Below, piece by piece: positions 7,801-60,590 of a stretch of 64,000 bases of DNA (the first letter of the stretch is position 1; every line of letters starts with the position of its first letter). A model generated the notes under the pieces. The model was given only the letters and a program-made list of their open reading frames with translations. It was not told the origin of the DNA and did no database searches. The DNA is from Octopus vulgaris. Lineage: Eukaryota. The DNA lies in NCBI GenBank assembly GCA_951406725.2, contig OX597822.1, positions 117,552,001 to 117,616,000 on the forward strand. The letters are read 5' to 3'. The translations under genes and the position numbers were made by a program.

Positions 7801-9777
7801 GGTTGAACTGTGAAGACGTCTAGCTTTGAGCTCCGTCCTACAAAGAAAAAAGAACAAAAACAGTGTTCTTCACGCACCTGTTGAAGTCGTCACGCTGATA
7901 TGCAGCTGGCGAAAGTTGAACTGAAAGACGCTGTAAAGTAAGACTCTTTGCTTTTTGAGTCCAGTAGGATTTCTTGCCTGTTGGTTTTATTTTTTTGAAC
8001 AGGCAGGGAGTCCTTACTGGATTCGAAGCTTTTTGTCTGCCTTGCGGCGGAGACGTGTGTGTTGTCTCACATAATTGTGAGAAATTGTATTTGAAAATTT
8101 TTGTGCCCACGTGGATTAAAAGGATTGGCCAGGAGTACCTTTCGGCCGAAAATTTATTTCTTTGTCTGGATTTGAACTCTCTTTTCACAGCTATCATTTA
8201 TTTGAAAAAAAGAAAGAACTTTATTTGAACTGTTATTTTTATTTTTTCTTCCCTTCCGTTGTGTCTTCTTTCTTTTATTGTGTATCTTTCTTTATTTGAA
8301 AACGTATTGATGAACTGTATTTGAACTTTTTATTAAAAAAAAAATGGCAAAGGAAATATTAGTGTGGGAATTAACACCTCCCAAACCATGGCTAAAAGAG
8401 CTCGAAAGGAAGATGGTGGTGTTGAGGACTTATTCAAAGTCGCTCGATACCATAACCGTCTTCCCGAAAGCCACAATTTTGAAAGAGCTGGCAGAGAACA
8501 TGCCAGCTATTAAATTTATTTCACGGGGAGTCAAATTTGCAACGGTCTGGTTGCTATTTGAATCCCCCAAAGAAGCTTGAGGGAAGGAAATAATATTTCT
8601 TCCCAGTTATTGTGGAAAGAAGTTAACGAGAGCTTGGGTTTGCGGCTTGCCACGCGGAATTGAGCCCGAGTGGATAGAGGACTCTTTCCGCCGGGGTTTG
8701 GGTGGTAACAGTACCAAGCTGCTCAACGTAAAAATTTTGCCTGCGGCTGATTGGGAGGAGTTAAAAGCTGTGTTGACCCTATGGACCCAATCAGCCGAAA
8801 GTCTGGTTTTCCCAGATTTTTTGAGGATGGCCGGGTCTAGGTATCCGGTGATGCTCGAGGGACGCCCCCCCTCAAGTGTCATCTGAGTCTGGAGACCGGC
8901 CACATCAAGAAAAACCGCTCCAAGGACCAAAATAGGATACTGGAGCAGTTAATAGAGGAACCACTCCCTGCTCCCTCAATGGAGGGAGAGAAGGAGGAGG
9001 ATGTCGAGGAGGTGGAAACCTCCTCGAAAACAAAAAAGCGAAAGGTGGGTTGCCCACCGAAGAACCCGAGAGCTGCGGGAGAAAAAGAGGACCTGCTGGA
9101 CACAGCAAGGGAACACCACCCTCCCGCGGCCCAAGGGAAAAAGAAAAGAAAAAAGAAAAACGGGACATTGCCAGCGGGTTGTGACACGCTGCCGGCGTGT
9201 CCCGATTCTCCTTTGGCGGGTGTGCTGCTGGAGGAGGAATTTTTGGTCCTCATCCACAAGGGAGGAACCTTGCAAAATGAAATCCAAAAAATTGAAAGGA
9301 AGTGCCGGTGGGAGGACCCTGAGTGGCCTTCGCAGGTGGCTGCGGAGGTCATATGGGAGAACGATCTGTGCAGGATAACGGACTCCTTCCCGAAGGACTC
9401 CTTCAGACTTATGTTGAAACCTTTAAGTTCGGAACGGACCAGGTGCTTCGATGAAGCGAGGAGCCTGGCCGGGCGGAAAGATTGAAGAGGTGTATTACCT
9501 CAAAAAGAGACTAAAAATGTAAAAAGTGAGAGGATTATTACCTCGTGTTTGTGTTTTATTTTTAATTTTGAACTGTGTAAGAGGTTTATTGCCTCATTGT
9601 GTTTTAAAAAAAACAGAAAAAAAGAACAATATTTTAGAGAAGCGAATGTCGGCGGGCGCTTTTCGTCTTCTCCCATCCTTATCATCCTTGTATCATCATC
9701 ATTCATCCCATTAATGTTTCTGTCTAGCCCTCAAGCTTCTCTCTGTGTGCTGCCCTTGTGGAAAATTTAATGAAATA
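7801..9777 (+). mobile_element. ORF1-only (HAL1-like) non-autonomous Tx1/L1-type retroposon
   Basis: 15-bp TSD AAGAAGCTTGCTTCC (7786-7800) / AAGAAGCTTGCTTTCC (9778-9793); 5' UTR, one disrupted ORF, 3' UTR with AATAAA; no EN/RT motifs seen. Confidence 0.75.
8344..9485 (+). pseudogene. Disrupted gag-like ORF1 (RRM-like region, degenerate CCHC knuckle, K/E-rich tail)
   Basis: RGVKFATV..FLPSYCGKKLTRAWVCGLP; EGRPP then frameshifted KCHLSLETGHIKKNR; stop at 8578-8580. Confidence 0.7.
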
Positions 9778-9917
9778 AAGAAGCTTGCTTTCCAACCACA
9801 TGGTTCCGGGTTCATTTCCACTGCATGTCACCTTGAGCAAGTGTCTTTTACTAATGCCTTGGGCCAACCAAAGCTTTGTGAGTGGATTTGGTAGACGGAA
9901 CCTGAAAGTAGCCCGTC

Positions 9918-9952
<35 letters not shown>

Positions 9953-11182
9953 TGTTTTTGTGGGTGTGTCTTTGTGTCTGTGTTTGTCCCCACACCATCG
10001 CTTGACAACCGATGCTTGTACGTTTATTTCCCTCGTAACTTAGCGGTTCGGCAAAAGACACCAGTAGAATAAGTACTAGGCTTACAAAGAATAAGTCCTT
10101 GGATCGATTTCTTAGACTAAAATTCTTCAAGGCGGTGCTCCAGCATGGCCGTATTCAAATGACTGAAACAAGTAAAAGAATAAAGGTTAGGGGATCTTTT
10201 TCTTTGATTTAAAAAAATCATGTTGAATAGAGCAGGACCTGTTGAAGAAAAGTGAGTTGCAATGCGGTTATGTGTAGTGAGCATTCTACAGGTAGCATAT
10301 GGAAAGGGGTCCCAGGGTTGAACGAATTGCAAACTTGATGTTAAAGTCGTTGAAAGACCTATATATATTACTGAAAGACGAATCATATAATCTTTTGTTC
10401 CATTTAACTAGTACTCTGCTCCATAAATTCATCGCTATAATCCTTACATAAATATAATGATAAACTGGATACTGAAGAGAAAACTTGAGAATAGGTAGTT
10501 GATTTATGCTCAACCAGACTAACTGATAGAGATTAACTGAAGATTTGTCCTAAAGGTAAAATTTACGAAATGTTTAAGGTTACATAAAGTTATTTTTTAC
10601 TATATGATGTTCCTATTAAACAGCAGGACAAAGCTGAAAAGTCCGAGACTATGGAATGCAGAAAGAACTCTACTGAAACTGTCGTAGGTCATTTATTAAT
10701 CAGCTTGTTAACAGGCTATCATCTTTACACGATGTGTCAATAAGCCTTATTTTATATTTAATTCACTTTAATTACTTTTTATGACTAATATATTTTCAGG
10801 GCTAGCTGCCATTTACTTTTGATAGATTTTTAATGATGACTTTTAATCTTCTTCCTCAAATAACTTAATTTGAAAAACAAATCAAAAAGAAGACAATCTA
10901 TTTTAAATGCGTGTTGATATATTTGTAAGAATGATTTCCAGGAAAATAAATTATAGTTTGTGTTGGCTTTTATGTTGTATATAACTACTTGATTATTCCA
11001 TCCTTGTCACAAAAAGAGAAAGAAAGGAACTGAAATCATCGATTCATTCGAAAATGGCATATTACAGGGAGAACTATGGAAGGATTATCTTTCATTCTAC
11101 GGTATTTTCTACTATATAATCAATTTAGAATATATTTTTATAAAAGCAAAGAAAACAACACAAAACTCAAAGACATGAGATC

Positions 11183-12638
<1,456 letters not shown>

Positions 12639-27554: not shown

Positions 27555-28190
27555 TATAATAAGATGAGAAAATAGAAAGGTAATTAATAAATAATTGTTA
27601 TATTTCGGAATGGTCATTTTGCCAGTTTAGCCAATAAAAACACACGCACTATATATTTGGTGCTATTTTGCTTCAGTGTTATTTATTTTTTTACATTAAT
27701 CTTAATCTTATTTAAGCCAGAGTTCTTTCGTCACACTCCTTTGTTTTCTTCTTTCTTATTTATTTCTTATTTATTTCTTATTTATTGTGTTTTTATTGGC
27801 TAAACTGGCAAAATGACCATTCCGAAATATAACAATATCTGTTTCAACACACGACTTCACATAAAAAATCTTGCACAACAAATATTTAAACGTAATAAAT
27901 ATTTCTTATTTATTAAAAAATTCACTAACATTCCTTACTGCTATATCAATTCAGGGTCTTAAAAATTAATTAAGTAAATTAAAAATTATTTGAAAGTAAG
28001 TCGAGTCTCTTCAGAGGTATACCTTTATATACCTCTGAAGAGCCTCGACTTACTTTCAAATAATTTTTAATTTACTTAATTAATTTTTGAAACCCTGAAT
28101 TGAAATAGCTGTAAGGGATGTTAGTGAATTTTTTAATAAATAAATAATAATTTACTAATTACCTTTCTATTCTCTCATCTTATTATTATA
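27555..28190. repeat. Nested inverted repeats (outer arms enclosing two hairpins), Penelope-like
   Basis: Outer 27555-27592/28146-28190; inner 27593-27643/27786-27836; ~240-bp palindrome 27905-28145. Confidence 0.85.
28032..28116 (+). ncRNA. Type I hammerhead motif, degenerate stem II (inverted copy at ~27926-28015 has GATA for GAAA)
   Basis: CCT-CTGAAGA-...-GAAA-TAGCTG-TA-AGG. Confidence 0.55.
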
Positions 28191-28804: not shown

Positions 28805-28910
28805 TATGAATGCTTATATTAGTACTTCTCTAATATTGAAGCTCAATTTTCAATGATGTTTTAAGATAAAAATAATTTTCTCGAGTTATTTTATATGTAA
28901 CAATTTATTA

Positions 28911-31382
28911 ATAACATAAGGGACTAAAGCCATCTGAATATGGCTAGGGACAGGGCAGGGTGGTGGGGGTGTTACTGTTGCATTTAGCCCCAGGCGAACA
29001 TCGACGTCACCAGAAAGGCTCGACACCGTCACGGTGCCCTTAACCTGCAAAGGGAGGTAATTCCCCGATGAAGCGGAAACCACACACGGACCATGGTTTC
29101 AAGGTGTATTTCCTATCGTCGGCGTGTGGTAGGCTTCCGCTTCCTCGACGAATCCTCACTCTGCAGGATATTCATATATAGATTTTCAAGCAAAATACAT
29201 TTGCTGATTTCGAAAATCTGTTCGAAAGCAATAATAATTCTCTAAAAGAGATATAGACAGTAACTGCTCGATAACATAAGGGACTAAAGCCATCTGAATA
29301 TGGCTAGGGACAGGGCAGGGTGGTGGGGGTGTTACTGTTGCATTTAGCCCCAGGCGAACATCGACGTCACCAGAAAGGCTCGACACCGTCACGGTGCCCT
29401 TAACCTGCAAAGGGAGGTAATTCCCCGATGAAGCGGAAACCACACACGGACCATGGTTTCAAGGTGTATTGCCTATCGTCGGCGTGTGGTAGGCTTCCGC
29501 TTCCTCGACGAATCCTCACTCTGCAGGATATTCATATATAGATTTTCAAGCAAAATACATTTGCTGATTTCGAAAATCTGTTCGAAAGCAATAATAATTC
29601 TCTAAAAGAGATATAGACAGTAACTGCTCGATAACATAAGGGACTAAAGCCATCTGAATATGGCTAGGGACAGGGCAGGGTGGTGGGGGTGTTACTGTTG
29701 CATTTAGCCCCAGGCGAACATCGACGTCACCAGAAAGGCTCGACACCGTCACGGTGCCCTTAACCTGCAAAGGGAGGTAATTCCCCGATGAAGCGGAAAC
29801 CACACACGGACCATGGTTTCAAGGTGTATTGCCTATCGTCGGCGTGTGGTAGGCTTCCGCTTCCTCGACGAATCCTCACTCTGCAGGATATTCATATATA
29901 GATTTTCAAGCAAAATACATTTGCTGATTTCGAAAATCTGTTCGAAAGCAATAATAATTCTCTAAAAGAGATATAGACAGTAACTGCTCGATAACATAAG
30001 GGACTAAAGCCATCTGAATATGGCTAGGGACAGGGCAGGGTGGTGGGGTGTTACTGTTGCATTTAGCCCCAGGCGAACATCGACGTCACCAGAAAGGCTC
30101 GACACCGTCACGGTGCCCTTAACCTGCAAAAGGAGGTAATTCCCCGATGAAGCGGAAACCACACACGGACCATGGTTTCAAGGTGTATTGCCTATCGTCG
30201 GCGTGTGGTAGGCTTCCGCTTCCTCGACGAATCCTCACTCTGCAGGATATTCATATATAGATTTTCAAGCAAAATACATTTGCTGATTTCGAAAATCTGT
30301 TCGAAAGCAATAATAATTCTCTAAAAGAGATATAGACAGTAACTGCTCGATTATATGAATATCCTGCAGAGTGAGGATTCGTCGAGGAAGCGGAAGCCTA
30401 CCACACGCCGACGATAGGCAATACACCTTGAAACCATGGTCCGTGTGTGGTTTCCGCTTCATCGGGGAATTACCTCCCTTTCCAGGTATAGGGCACCGTG
30501 ACGGTGTCGAGCCTTTCTGGTGACGTCGATGTTCGCCTGGGGCTAAATGCAACACTAACACCCCCACCACCCTGCCCTGTCCCTAGCCATATTCAGATGG
30601 CTTTAGTCCCTTATGTTATCGAGCAGTTACTGTCTATATCTCTTTTAGAGAATTATTATTGCTTTCGAACAGATTTTCGAAATCAGCAAATGTATTTTGC
30701 TTGAAAATCTATATATGAATATCCTGCAGAGTGAGGATTCGTCGAGGAAGCGGAAGCCTACCACACGCCGACGATAGGCAATACACCTTGAAACCATGGT
30801 CCGTGTGTGGTTTCCGCTTCATCGGGGAATTACCTCCCTTTGCAGGTTAAGGGCACCGTGACGGTGTCGAGCCTTTCTGGTGACGTCGATGTTCGCCTGG
30901 GGCTAAATGCAACAGTAACACCCCCACCACCCTGCCCTGTCCCTAGCCATATTCAGATGGCTTTAGTCCCTTATGTTATCGAGCAGTTACTGTCTATATC
31001 TCTTTTGGTGAATTATTATTGCTTTCGAACAGATTTTCGAAATCAGCAAATGTATTTTGCTTGAAAATCTATATATGAATATCCTGCAGAGTGAGGATTC
31101 GTCGAGGAAGCGGAAGCCTACCACACGCCGACGATAGGCAATACACCTTGAAACCATGGTCCGTCTGTGGTTTCCGCTTCATCGGGGAATTACCTCCCTT
31201 TGCAGGTTAAGGGCACCGTGACGGTGTCGAGCCTTTCTGGTGACGTCGATGTTCGCCTGGGGCTAAATGCAACAGTAACACCCCCACCACCCTGCCCTGT
31301 CCCTAGCCATATTCAGATGGCTTTAGTCCCTTATGTTATCGAGCAGTTACTGTCTATATCTCTTTTAGAGAATTATTATTGC
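28911..31382. mobile_element. Inverted tandem array of a 360-bp structured non-coding unit with 13-bp TSD
   Basis: Left arm 28911-30351 (4.0 units), right arm 30352-31382 (2.86 units, opposite orientation); CAATTTATTAATA at 28901-28913 and 31382-31394. Confidence 0.9.
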
Positions 31383-33879
31383 AATTTATTAATATATTTC
31401 ATGAAATACCAATAAGGCAGTACACGAGACATACTTAAGTAAATGTTGAATGTTTTCATGCTACTCAGCTCTGACAGTGTACGCTAGACGCATGTTCTCT
31501 CGCCATTCAATAAGCTAAAGTAAAAATTGTGAACACATTTTATGTGACAAACAGGACAGTTTTAATTAAAGGTATCACTACTCAAGATAGGTAGCAGCAA
31601 TATTTCCAAATCTCAAATAATTAAATGGTTTCTACATACTGGAGTTCAGTTAATTATAAGTGAGATATGGCAAAAACATTAGCTCGTCGGCTAATATTAA
31701 ATCAATGTCTTTACAAGCGTGATGACAACGTGTAAAATTTAGTTAGTGTCTCAAAATACGAGATGCATTTGTGGAAAGAACTATGTCACCAAATTCTTTT
31801 CGCAAGCGTATCTCCTATTTTAAGATGTGCTCAGCCATAGCAAACTGGCTGGAGATCTTGTGTTAGTGTACGCTGTCTGTAATTGAAGAATTGGGGTAAA
31901 ACTCAACATTTGTTTTAACGCTTCGGATATACTGAAATGTAAATTGCTTACGACGGATCCTCTCAACATTTTAGAAACAACTAAATTATACATCTAATAA
32001 AAGGAAAGAACAAATTAGATAATATAGTCGTATATGTACTAAAAATATGTATAGTCATACGTAGAATATCTCTGATATCGATCAGAATTGATTTAAAGTG
32101 AAGCAGTGACCTCAACGAAGTCGTTAATGAAATTAAAGAAATCATGAATATTGTCTTTTCACGTGGCCCTTACACCTTGGATTTCGCGCTGTCACTGATC
32201 CAAAGGGTTTATTGCAATGAAATATGTCTAAAAGAAAATACACTGCATTAAAAATATAAGAAAACGTTAGACGAAGACATTTTTATTGTATCTCAACATA
32301 ATTATCGTTGTTTGGTTTCTCAAGTAGAAATGAATCAACCATAGTGAATATATTTGATCTCATGTCTATTAAAAAAAAAACTATTTCTGTTTATACTCCT
32401 AGTACTAGTCTAATTAAAAAGTATTAAATTTAATTAATGCAACGTTACAAATCGCTGTCGAAACTCAAAACTTTTTATGAGCTAATAGCTTTTAAGACGC
32501 TTTTAAGGTCACAGTAACATACGGAGTGTTCTGCTGGGAAATTATACAGATAATGATCAACTTTATAGACACAACTAGGCCTCAAAACCACAATTAGTCT
32601 CATTCGATTTCATCTAATTTAAAGAGAAAAATTAATGTGGTGTTTGTTCGGTTTAATACACGAGTTATTTTTCAATTTCAAAGAAAACTCAGTCAAGTTA
32701 CCACATCTCACTTTGAAATAAAAGCCTTGAAAGCCTATCGGCATCTTTGATGTATTCTCTTATAATGTTATAGTGAAGGTTTGATCTCAACTAGATATTG
32801 CTTTGCATGCAGAATAGTAAATGCAGTGTACAGATAATCAATATGTTGTATAAAAGTGAGTTTAACCGTCTGAAAAATTTGTTAGAAATATATAACGAAT
32901 CAGCTAACTATGTTTATACGTAACAACTTTGATAAGACTTTTTTATATAGTATTTTCTCTTTTTATATAGCCAGTGAGAAGTTTTAGAGATACGGTCATG
33001 AAAATAAGAAAAATATATATATAACGTTAAAATATGTAACTAATGAAACTATAACGACTGAAAATATGCATTTTCAGATAAAGATTTAAAAAATATATCG
33101 TCAAGTTTTGGAATACACATGGGTACACATAAACACATATACAGGGACACACGTAAAAGTATAAAGTGAGCTTAAATTTGGTTATTTTTGGCAATAAAGA
33201 AACAAAGTGGTAATGAGTATTCATGTTGTTCCTGATCTCATAAAATACTTTAATGGTGAATATAAAATGAACAGGATTCAATTAAGAATCATAACTTAAA
33301 CTCGGGTTTTTGGGTACTTCTCGCTTGCTCTATCACGTTTACAAAATGCACTAAATACCAAATACAAACACACATACCGACACATAGACACTCACTATAT
33401 TCCTTTAGTCACCTAAATATTATTCTCTTAGTAATATTGATTTCATAAGATAGGATTTGGATGGAAGCTGAGTCATTGAGGGATGGAGAGCAAAGTGAAC
33501 CCGGATGGAATTTGAGCTTAAAATACAAAAGGCTGTACTAAATACCGAAAGGTATATTGTCGGACATTCTATTGATACTGATTCTACCATCCACTGCTCT
33601 TTTTATGAGATCGGTTTAGTAGTGCACAAAATACCTTGTGCTATCTAGCAACGTCCCTTTATGTTATGGGTAGAAAATCTCCAACCCTATACGACTTCGC
33701 CTTTGATCCTCTCAGTGCTGTTAAAATAATCCTGGAATCTATATTATTTACTAAAATCCCTCTCCCAAAACTATGGTCTTGTCTCTGTGTTATATCTTTT
33801 CTATTTGTACCAAAAAGAAAAGTAAGATATTTAAATATAAAATGTTAAAATCAGCATTTATAAGGATCACGCCCCACTC

Positions 33880-38114: not shown

Positions 38115-38930
38115 TTACTGTATTGAAAGTGTTCTGCGTAGGATGTGTGCAGTGCCTAGTAGTGCAATTTTCTGTATGTTATATGTGTTTGTAAGTCCTG
38201 GTGTTTTTGTTATGTATTTGTCTGAATATTTTTTTATCATGCCTAATGCACCTACTATGATAGGAATTGTTTCTGTTTTTAGATTCCACATTCTGGTTAC
38301 CTCTATTTCCAGGTCTTTGTATTTTGAAAGTTTCTCCATTTCTTTTAGAGACACGTTGTCATCTGCTGGTATTGATACATCAATTAGAAAGCATTTTTTT
38401 CATCATGATCTCTGACAACTATATCTGGTCTGTTGGCCTTAATTTCTCTATCTGTGTATTGGCATATCCCAGAGTATGGTTGCTTTCTCGTTTTCTGTGA
38501 CCTTTTCTGGTGTGTGCCTATGCCATCTTTTTTCTGTTGTTATTCCATAATGTTGGCATAGCTTCCAGTGTATGTAGAACCCAACTCTGTCGTGTCTGTG
38601 AATATATTCCTTCTTAGCCAGGACTGGGCAGCCAGAGATAATATGATTTATTCTTTCTTGTCCATCTCCACATATTCTGCAGTTACTTGTTATATTTCTT
38701 TTCATTACATGTTTTTGGTAATTTCTAGTGGGGAGGCTTTGGTCTTGTGCTGCTATTAAAAATCCCTCTGTCTCTGCTTTCAATCCTGAGCTTCTCATCC
38801 ACTGCTGGGATTTTTCTTTGTCTATTTCTTTTGCATTTAGTTTAGTCCAGTACTTGCCATGAAGGGGCTTTTCTTGCCATCGTTTTATCATGGTCCGTTA
38901 CTGTTCTAGATTTAGTTTTGATTTCATTTG
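38115..38930 (-). pseudogene. Restriction-like endonuclease LINE C-terminus (R4/Dong-like), frameshifted
   Basis: PLHGKY, ETEGFLIAAQDQSL, CRICG..NHIISGC, RHDRV, EKLSKY, PIIVGALG; 3' end abuts (TAA)n. Confidence 0.9.
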
Positions 38931-39044
38931 CTTTATAGCTTTTGTTGTGTTTTCTTCTTCTTCTTCTTCTTCTTCTTCTTCTTCTTCTTCTTCTTCTTCT
39001 TCTTCTTCTTCTTCTTCTTCTTCTTCTTCTTCTTCTTCTTCCAG

Positions 39045-40160
39045 TTGATTAGTCATTGCAGTGCCTGGGTGACCTCTTCAGTTGTTATGGGGGTCCAAAG
39101 TTGCTCAGATGCTGAGTTTGTTGTTTTAATACTCCTTTTTTTTTGGTTGTTCTTTCCCCGACCATATTTCTTTCCAGAATTCTTCCACTTCCTCTGTCGT
39201 TGGTGCTGCAGTGATGTCTATTTTATTTTTGCCAAGTTCTTGGTAGAACTTTTTGGGGTTGGAGTTGAACTGTTTGTTTTGTTCAAAGAAACGTTGGCGT
39301 TTCTCGTACCGGATCCTTTGTGCTTTGGCAAGGATATCTTGCTTTAGCTTTTCTTTTATCTCAGGTAAATCTTTTTGTGTGATGTTGTATTTGCGGAGTA
39401 TTTTAGTTTTCTTTTTGTTGCTCAGTAGCGTTGATTGTCTACTGATTTCATTAAGAATCGACAGATCTTTTCTGATTTTTTGTATTTGTTTTTAATGTTA
39501 TTTATCCACAGGGTTTGTTTGGGTGGTTGTACTCCTGTTTGGATGGGTTTGAGGGAGTATCCAGCTTCTTTTGTGGCTGCAGTGGCTGCTGCATATACTA
39601 AGTCATTTAGCTCAGTGATATCGCTATTTGTTTCAGTGGCTATTAGTTCTGTGACGGCTAGGTTTATGCTGTTTATAATTGATGTTATTTTTGGTCTATT
39701 TTGATATTTGGGAGGTATGGTCGGTGGTCCATTTTGAGATCTGTGTTTTTCAGTTCTTTGATTATTCTACTTTTTATAGTATCATCATTAGGCTCCCCTT
39801 CGTTGTTTCCAGGTTTTAGATTTGTGTCGCTTTTTTTCTCGTTCGTATGTTTGTCTGTCGTGTTTTGGCTTGCTGCTTGTCGTGCATTATTATACATCCT
39901 TACGGTCTGGGTTTGTTGTTTTTTGTTTACATGGTTTTTGTTGGAAATGTTACGTTTGTCTTCGTGTTTTACTATCTCAGTGTTTATATTATTTGGCATT
40001 GTTGTGTGGCTTCTATCTACATTTTCCTGATGTATTTTTTCTTTTAAATGTTCTATTTCTGATATTTTTTTGCGTTGAGAATATATCTTCGTACGTTAGC
40101 TAGTTTATTAGGGTTCATTGCTGTATCCAAGTCTTTGTTTATGTTATTTTTCTTCCATAT
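39045..40160 (-). pseudogene. N-terminal region of R4/Dong-like LINE; RT domain missing
   Basis: YLPNIK..ELNDLVYAAATA..PPKQTLWINNI motifs resemble pre-RT region of R4-clade ORFs; joined to C-terminus via (TTC)n at 38953-39041. Confidence 0.6.
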
Positions 40161-41269: not shown

Positions 41270-41575
41270 TTTACGACTAGCTACTTTGCTTGTTGCAAAT
41301 CAGTGACCGATGGTTGCTTTTTTTTCTATATATTGCTTGCTGGAGCGGACTCTGGCCATCTCTCTAGCGACCGGGTTTTCGCGATTGAGAACGAGTAAAT
41401 TAGCTCAAAACAGAGTCGGTCTCGCGATCCCGTCGTCTGCTGGAGGGTAGAAGAGATTCACTCCCCTGCTTGCAATATATACAGGGTGCAAGCTGCTCCT
41501 ATAACCAGTTAGTGGAAGACCTGCCTGGGGTTACACATCAGTAACATTGATAACATTGAAGGGCCATATTGATGC
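41135..41575 (+). mobile_element. Diverged single-copy relative of the 360-bp structured unit
   Basis: Same motif order: CAGTTACTG, AAATCAG..TTGCTT..TCTATATA, long rod hairpin, short hairpin, GCCTGGGG(C/T)TA, CAGTAACA, GCCATATT. Confidence 0.6.
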
Positions 41576-41592
41576 GGATATTAAATTTACTA

Positions 41593-41642
<50 letters not shown>

Positions 41643-59935: not shown

Positions 59936-60491
59936 AGGCCATGGATTGGCGTAATCATTAACATATCGGACACAATCCCTCACAGTGTTTGCTCAGACAA
60001 ATCTTTGTATTCAGAATTCTTTGATGGTAGTTATAACCCGTTAACCGGATTGATACCACCGCCAAGTTCTTGGGTGCTTTTAGCGGAATTCGGGCTAGGT
60101 GTCCGGTTTCGGGAATGACAACTCCACTTTAATATCAGAGATCCTGAAAAATGAGGGGACATGACCGTTGTCCTTTCATTCCTCAGACAACTCTAAGTAT
60201 ACTCTTCTTTCATATGTTGAATAGTTTCGTTCAATGGTGCAGAGTAAAATGTGCTGCAGAAATAAATAAAAATGAAAGTTAATGTTATATGAAGGCCTTT
60301 GATGAAGCATTTTTCCACAGTGTCTTTTCTTGTGTAAGCGGAACAGTTTTAACTAGAAATGTAAAAATATCATGCTTTAACATGTTCATTGATATTAATT
60401 TCTTCAATAATTCATTTTAGCTTAAACTTAAATTAAAATAATAACTATTATTAAATCTCAGAATGAGATGTAAACAGTAATCGCTCGATAA

Positions 60492-60590
60492 TGTAAAGTA
60501 TAGAAGCCATCTTAGAAGCCACAGTAGAGCTACAGTAACACCCCCTCCCCTATGTGGTTAGCCATATTAAGATGGCTTCTATACTTTACA
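60492..60590. repeat. Short inverted repeat / possible MITE
   Basis: TGTAAAGTATAGAAGCCATCTTA vs TAAGATGGCTTCTATACTTTACA (23 bp perfect). Confidence 0.7.

Follow-up and report, generated by a model that had tools for sequence, protein, structure and literature searches.

How did a short non-coding sequence come to stand almost seven times, in two opposed orientations, between two copies of the same target sequence in the genome of Octopus vulgaris? The locus lies in a stretch of 64,000 nucleotides (assembly GCA_951406725.2, contig OX597822.1, positions 117,552,001 to 117,616,000 of the forward strand), which is called the window here and whose own numbering is used below. A first-pass annotation of this DNA described about 6.9 units of 360 bp and proposed that they entered in one event as copies of a retrozyme-like RNA. 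Both proposals are borne out: the size of the unit, its dispersal, a type I hammerhead ribozyme, the lack of coding and a long target-site duplication (TSD) agree with a retrozyme, and the anatomy of the arms, the TSD and the outer ends agree with a single retrotransposition event. The array is very probably a young, non-autonomous retrozyme of the type lacking long terminal repeats (non-LTR), with a structured non-coding unit of 360 nt and a type I hammerhead, copied in trans by a Penelope-like element (PLE) that encodes a reverse transcriptase (RT) and a GIY-YIG endonuclease. It probably represents a new non-LTR retrozyme family, mobilised by the PLE through priming on both target strands.

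The array consists of two tandem arms with a period of 360, one of 4.0 copies (28911-30351, 99% matches) and one of 2.86 copies (30352-31382, 98% matches), which are mutually inverted and converge, as had been described. The innermost unit of the right arm carries a cluster of four changes. The 13-bp sequence CAATTTATTAATA occurs exactly twice in the window, once at each outer end (28901-28913 and 31382-31394). It had been read as a direct repeat of 13 bp, of which the presence at the two ends stands and the full length is uncertain: one letter at one end and up to three at the other also match the ends of the element, so that the duplication here is 9-13 bp long. The pattern of the family favours 12-13 bp. 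The outer ends fall at unit positions 1 and 318 and, as already reported, no poly(A) was found at the array. The array contains no stop-to-stop frame of 120 aa or more, and thus no coding region and no RT or GIY-YIG open reading frame (ORF). An LTR arrangement was also not found in it, the primer-binding site and the polypurine tract not being the subject of a separate search. Both strands of the unit fold better than shuffled sequences (z -4.2 and -5.5).

The earlier statement that the unit lacks a hammerhead core does not hold, since a covariance model detects a type I hammerhead in all seven copies. The ribozyme is composed of stem I CACACG/CGUGUG, which extends into a long rod, the core CCGACGA (U4C), the GAAA element, stem II AGG/CCU on a U-U mismatch, the GUC triplet and a palindromic stem III, ACCAUGGU. 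In the right arm it is encoded by the + strand, in the left arm by the - strand. With a relaxed descriptor the ribozyme is recovered from the sense strand alone and from 0 of 2000 shuffles; the antisense strand carries a hammerhead-like word, which was rejected, as it has no stem I and fails the descriptor. The sense of the template, predicted from the wobble pairs to be the + strand of the right arm, is upheld because the hammerhead occurs on that strand only. Canonical-core relatives with the same stem III number 49 in the genome (3 in the control). Over 19 sequences, the unit and 18 of 30 fetched relatives, pairing in the stems reaches 91% and there are 37 two-sided changes, a result inflated by the relatedness of the sequences; this was reached in 0 of 500 shuffles, and slid registers are 17-37% paired. 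The covariance model was built from 16 older copies with the unit left out, and it scores the window copies at 32-39 bits (next best 15). Its training set was picked by the stem III word of the unit, and the model also recovers sibling copies whose stem III palindromes differ. In Rfam, no meaningful match was found over the unit at E up to 10, and none over the window at the gathering score.

The unit is widespread in the genome (2.8 Gb, 227 contigs), as the comparison suggested with the first-pass annotation reveals; multimers, end registers and TSDs were tabulated. Searching with a single unit gave 207 matches from 40 scored of 670 candidates, and most of the full-length ones are 97-100% identical. 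The two outer ends are called here the short end (unit position about 1) and the tail end (about 317). Exact patterns detect 535 junctions of (AT)n to the short end and 441 of (AT)n to the tail end, with 0 in the controls, which sets the number of dispersed, near-identical insertions at 535 at least. The family is considered young because rare changes amount to only about 5 per kb. A sibling family of 355 nt, 73% identical to the unit, has 141 pattern hits and uses the same two end sites, and at least three older subfamilies can be aligned over most of the unit, including the tail region. Position 7 of the hammerhead varies freely (48 loci), a change in the stem III loop preserves the palindrome at 7 loci, a UUGA core is present at 14 older loci, and C3U cores occur in the older members and the sibling family. 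Decayed pieces of older subfamilies lie in the window at 41450-41597 (+), ending in (AT)n, and at 60436-60512 (-).

The unit was also found in public sequencing runs of 10 studies; none of these runs is recorded as RNA, which is evidence in neither direction for its transcription. In run X18 the summed contig depth over 31253-31321 is about 600,000, compared with 45 for the unique flank, a value which is not a copy number; this 3′ part of the unit is common to very many related copies. A 3576-nt contig of X18 follows the right flank to 31382 and continues for another 112 nt outside any alignment with the unit, and it may represent the empty allele of the window insertion. Additional hammerhead families, which differ in their stem III palindromes (ACUCGAGU, ACUAUAGU), were noticed at L211:27-75 (+), L197, L202 and L220 (L numbers denote loci), and the genome seems to be rich in retrozymes. 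In the giant squid, 235 hammerhead-1 hits have been counted (PMC6962438).

The way in which the unit is inserted is visible in 164 complete insertions, mapped with groups running off the fetched stretch left out. Two arms are present in 120 of them and converge in every case (120/120), as in the window, and the outer ends pair unit positions of about 1 and about 317 in 116 of the 120. The two sites are 44-46 nt apart, the tail site being 3′ on the RNA; the exact spacing varies with the assignment of terminal A/T letters to the target. Among 39 loci collected by similarity with the ends disregarded, the short and tail ends are paired in 27 of 28 two-armed insertions. The outer ends are two fixed RT start sites, matching the tail signature of PLEs, across the family. 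That the window ends fall at different registers had been noted correctly; their reading as random entry on a circle is overturned by this constancy.

(AT)n stands on both flanks in 101 of the 120 two-armed insertions, partly by selection, and an AT-rich or (AT)n target is also found at most similarity-only loci, which were collected without flank selection. At the 19 two-armed sites that are not pure (AT)n, a duplication of 12-13 bp is present in 10, none in 4, and other lengths inside AT runs in 5. In 80 length-unbiased insertions the lengths of the two arms correlate (Spearman 0.63). The short-end arm exceeds the tail-end arm in 34 of them, falls below it in 24 and matches it in 22. Because it is the longer of the two in 34 of the 80, a snap-back mechanism, in which one arm would be copied from the other, was rejected; each arm is a cDNA of its own. 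The arms of an insertion stop at unit positions within 10 nt of each other in 24 of 120 cases, compared with 8.9 by permutation. Three loci (L283, L285, L298) have a few hundred bases of unrelated sequence between the arms, possibly captured templates. At L062, L114 and others, changes of an older subfamily at unit positions 99-129 occur only in the copy adjoining the inversion junction, which suggests a switch to a related RNA or a repair of the junction.

Such anatomy is known from PLEs. Craig et al. (2021, PMC8557442) describe an inverted, 5′-truncated copy and a tail of 30-40 bp at one end. Frangieh et al. (2024, PMC11167929) report that the PLE protein PAc cleaves AT-rich DNA on both strands, extends both of them, and uses two adjacent internal start sites on the RNA, with the tail between them. 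The Octopus vulgaris insertions share with Neptune/Nematis and Naiad PLEs the inverted truncated copy, the optional tail, the two internal RT starts, the AT-rich or (TA)n targets and the type I hammerhead. They differ in having no ORF, in that the whole element is the repeated unit, in the tail of 44-46 rather than 30-40 nt, and in a unit without homology to the sampled terminal repeats of PLEs. The non-autonomous MRC1 PLEs of Chlamys are likewise non-coding passengers with multicopy head-to-tail insertions; they differ in that their 3′ sequence is shared with autonomous partners and that canonical hammerheads are missing from their clade (PMC8557442).

The following pathway can be proposed for the family. 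The arrays would be transcribed on the hammerhead strand, and the PLE protein would bind the RNA near the two RT start sites 44-46 nt apart, as the fixed ends and the biochemistry of PAc suggest. Both strands of AT-rich or (AT)n DNA would then be cut with a stagger of 12-13 nt, in agreement with the TSDs observed. Both 3′ ends could prime cDNA, one at each start site, and the anatomy of the arms shows that head-to-tail units are read through without a stop at the ribozyme cut. Finally, the inner ends of the two cDNAs would be connected, in many cases close to the foot of a long hairpin, giving the converging arms; here the resulting anatomy is observed, and the joining chemistry is presumed.

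Which enzyme could act in this way? A genome scan for GIY-YIG sequences gave 6136 candidates, and the 150 that were scored include many identical-scoring young copies with open frames of 781 aa. The 781-aa protein contains RVT_1 and GIY-YIG domains and a CX4CXXC linker, the motif of Neptune/Nematis (PMC8557442). The anatomy of this PLE was derived from 3.3-kb loci: its terminal repeat ends in (AT)n, with an optional tail in 5 of 12 ends, and 124 of its tail junctions occur genome-wide. No PLE protein was found near 30 canonical-hammerhead loci or 30 sibling loci. The terminal repeat also holds a hammerhead-like motif with the core UUGAUAA (C3U with G8A) and a palindromic stem III ACAUGU, conserved over many copies (about 2770-2805 in L075 and 2667-2705 in L080), with repeated CCAAT-like and TGACGTC words upstream. 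The retrozyme and this PLE meet in one insertion. At L286, which lies in (AT)n, one arm is retrozyme copied from the tail end and the other arm starts at the short end of the PLE, continues for nearly 300 nt through PLE terminal repeat, of 98.7% identity with L094, and passes from there into retrozyme. A tail end is paired with a short end at this locus, as in single insertions. A later second insertion is disfavoured because the last 10 or so nt of the retrozyme are absent without duplication. The most likely driver is the young 781-aa PLE of Neptune/Nematis type in the Octopus vulgaris genome, an assignment that can be held with reasonable confidence.

The state of the RNA template is reflected in the inner ends of the arms. 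At the predicted ribozyme cut there are 3 of 284 inner ends, compared with 2.4 expected, and 88 of 160 arms pass the cut, 26 of them twice. The template was continuous across the cut, because inner ends are not in excess there and arms pass through it. Linear cleaved monomers as the main template were rejected on the same count, although three arms end one base short of the cut. Unit positions 121-150, the base of the long hairpin, collect 63 of the 284 inner ends. Among 68 multi-copy loci 55 are uniform, one of them (L159) over about 23 copies in both arms; 100 fully covered loci fall into 35 haplotypes, and 9 rare variants are present in every copy of their own locus. Common variants agree between the arms in 356 of 397 comparisons, which points to one template having served both arms. 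Being continuous, that template was either a monomer circle, ligated and read repeatedly, or a multimer transcript left uncleaved. Rare changes show no excess at the predicted ligation point, and no ligation scar was found. In two runs from two studies, whose RNA nature is a guess, the unit forms a 390-nt contig closing on itself, and both contigs break at the short end, as read-through would also give; in a third such run the unit contig runs into flanking sequence. The chance that circular RNA templates play a substantial role is about even.

Several findings weigh against the reading of the array as a ribozyme-bearing element driven by this PLE. Most mapped loci were found through the end pattern, so one end and its (AT)n flank are fixed by selection, and 44 of the 164 insertions are one-armed by score, several of these being mis-grouped two-armed insertions. 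The tail of the 781-aa PLE (about 35-38 nt) is unlike that of the retrozyme in length and sequence. The unit gave no significant BLAST or profile match to 30 GIY-YIG loci of the 6136 candidates. Without such homology a derivation from the PLE terminal repeat is unsupported, and the partnership relies on shared anatomy and one chimera, which is 1 of 164 insertions. Core position 4 is the non-canonical C in 312 of 339 copies, and the minimum-energy fold is predicted to pair the core away, the hammerhead fold costing about 9 kcal/mol. The U4C change lowers activity in vitro, with viroid infectivity still possible (PMC3088659). Because of this core and the cost of the fold, the activity of the unit hammerhead is probably low, and it may cleave poorly or not at all. 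Finally, 13 of the 68 multi-copy loci hold rare variants in some copies only (17 such variants), L048 is a mosaic of subfamily haplotypes, and 41 of the 397 comparisons between arms disagree. A single monomer circle alone is thus insufficient as a template; the mixed arrays could come from multimer transcripts, from switching between circles or from later gene conversion.

Other explanations of the enzyme and of the copies were also weighed. The mechanism first proposed was twin priming by a LINE-type, L1-like RT on a circular RNA, with free end registers. L1 twin priming does yield inversions with TSDs of this kind. Priming on both target strands is retained from that proposal, but the LINE-type RT gives way to a PLE, whose tail and inverted copy fit the locus: poly(A) and tail repeats are missing, both ends lie at two fixed internal sites, in 116 of 120 cases the inverted arm has a fixed starting point of its own, and one insertion joins the retrozyme to a PLE. 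The LINE reading is largely refuted by the fixed ends and highly improbable. Inverted tandem repeats are hard to assemble, but the chance of an assembly or amplification chimera is negligible in view of the same anatomy at more than 100 loci, each with its own haplotypes and TSDs, and of the recovery of the unit from the 10 studies mentioned. It would be more plausible, while still unlikely, that another PLE family of the genome, e.g., of Naiad or Penelope/Poseidon type, has a terminal repeat homologous to the unit and acts as the driver, the chimera L286 being an accidental template switch or two successive insertions. The small share of candidates fetched (30 of 6136, with 150 scored), the difference between the two tails and the preference of Naiads, which are present in cephalopods, for (TA)n (PMC8557442) agree with this idea. 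The end pair of L286 and the near identity of its PLE part to a young-family copy speak for the 781-aa element instead, and its unduplicated loss of retrozyme sequence speaks against a later insertion.

As regards the copies, the same element and PLE machinery could operate on a template that is always an uncleaved linear multimer from long master arrays, with a vestigial or slow hammerhead and no circles. This is a serious possibility, at somewhat less than an even chance. It accords with the U4C core and its sequestering fold, with the insertion of PAc from unprocessed RNA, for which the ribozyme is dispensable (PMC11167929), with the mixed arrays, some of which (L161, L167, L275, L291) show unit-restricted variants at matching unit numbers in the two arms, and with the unremarkable ligation point. 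On the other side, the uniform loci, the many haplotypes and the rare variants shared by every copy need a monomer bottleneck or strong homogenisation. Only two pairs of loci share two or more unit-restricted variants, both of them adjacent-site pairs, so that no common master order is seen, and the stems of the hammerhead keep covarying. Growth after the insertion of a monomer, by local unequal exchange as in the satellite model (bioRxiv 10.64898/2026.07.22.740005), appears improbable. Some exchange of this sort after insertion would agree with the partial variants of neighbouring units (L054, L061) and with the mosaic L048, but both arms are multimeric with correlated lengths, both outer ends and the TSDs are intact, and rare changes are few.

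The retrozyme class itself is known, and it is the mechanistic evidence that is unusually clear here. Metazoan non-LTR retrozymes of coral, mussel and axolotl are tandem non-coding units of 150-450 bp, 350-390 bp in mussel (Cervera and de la Pena 2020, PMC7229834). The octopus unit resembles them in size, in one type I hammerhead per unit, in strongly self-paired RNA and in a TSD above 4 bp, its assignment to the class being made from the genome sequence through unit size, dispersal, hammerhead, absent coding and long TSD. A U-U mismatch at the foot of helix II is likewise present in HHR_Amex2 of the axolotl, which performs better in dimeric form (PMC7229834). The differences are the U4C core, with C3U in older members and the sibling, and the converging two-armed insertions, fixed ends and 44-46-nt tail, which the portions consulted of PMC7229834 do not describe. 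Li, Clavereau and Pollet (bioRxiv 10.64898/2026.07.22.740005) likewise propose PLE machinery, for vertebrate retrozymes. The preprint argues from co-distribution and phylogeny, suggests local tandem amplification and does not use the word 'tail', whereas the octopus evidence is insertion anatomy and a chimera, and its tandems look made at insertion. In the open literature, leaving aside Repbase, Dfam and the supplement of PMC7229834, no cephalopod retrozyme family and no tails or inversions in retrozyme insertions were found; the family may already be catalogued.

How animal non-LTR retrozymes move is a stated open question (PMC7229834; PMC7761336; bioRxiv 10.64898/2026.07.22.740005). PLE mobilisation has already been proposed, the tail and inversion evidence not being part of the arguments in the portions consulted of PMC7229834 and the preprint. 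The present family supplies exact RT start sites, the stagger length, the strand, a candidate enzyme with ORFs and a chimeric insertion, and the start sites, stagger, enzyme and chimera make the question directly testable in an in vitro assay of the PAc type. In addition, it speaks for an origin of tandems during insertion instead of subsequent satellite growth, and indicates that active retrozyme families can carry non-canonical cores missed by standard searches. A bolder model, offered tentatively and with more doubt than belief, is that a dimeric PLE enzyme primes both DNA strands on a viroid-sized RNA circle and runs up to about 15 rounds per arm, the passenger having no terminal-repeat sequence of its driver. 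The youngest lineages would repeatedly have shifted to weakened cores, the series being CUGA in old subfamilies, UUGA and finally CCGA, and in this way the circle would stay closed. If the enzyme rolls round a circle as a dimer, the family would give direct genomic evidence of animal retrozyme movement; if weakened cores keep circles closed, a hidden set of retrozymes would exist beyond the reach of canonical hammerhead searches.

Table 1. Features of the retrozyme array, in window coordinates.
Feature	Position	Strand	Remarks
TSD, left copy	28901..28913	+	up to 13 bp; last 3 letters also match the short end of the element
Left arm, 4.0 units	28911..30351	-	RNA sense on the - strand; short RT start site, without tail, at the outer end (unit position 1-3)
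Right arm, 2.86 units	30352..31382	+	RNA sense is the + strand; inversion junction at unit position 268, tail end at 318
PLE-type tail	31340..31382	+	reaches from one RT start site to the other (44-46 nt across the family); at the terminus of the right arm only; cf. PMC11167929
TSD, right copy	31382..31394	+	second CAATTTATTAATA
Type I hammerhead, copy 1	29081..29130	-	core CCGACGA (U4C); covariance model 38.9 bits
Type I hammerhead, copy 2	29441..29490	-	covariance model 37.3 bits
Type I hammerhead, copy 3	29801..29850	-	covariance model 37.3 bits
Type I hammerhead, copy 4	30160..30209	-	covariance model 37.3 bits
Type I hammerhead, copy 5	30400..30449	+	predicted cut after 30441; descriptor, covariation, covariance model
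Type I hammerhead, copy 6	30760..30809	+	covariance model 37.3 bits
Type I hammerhead, copy 7	31120..31169	+	one private change in stem I; 31.7 bits

Other repeats surround the array in the window. An inverted repeat of 125 nt lies 750 bp to its left (27897-28021 and 28028-28152, 93% complementary with a 6-nt gap), and is MITE-like or another fold-back insertion. The region 8841-12245 is GC-richer and contains open frames which, by eye, resemble the start and the end of a non-LTR retrotransposon, broken by a (TATC)n run. On the - strand at 38448-40095 there are fragments that resemble, again by eye, a restriction-like-endonuclease retrotransposon with a CCHC finger, split by a (TTC)n run.

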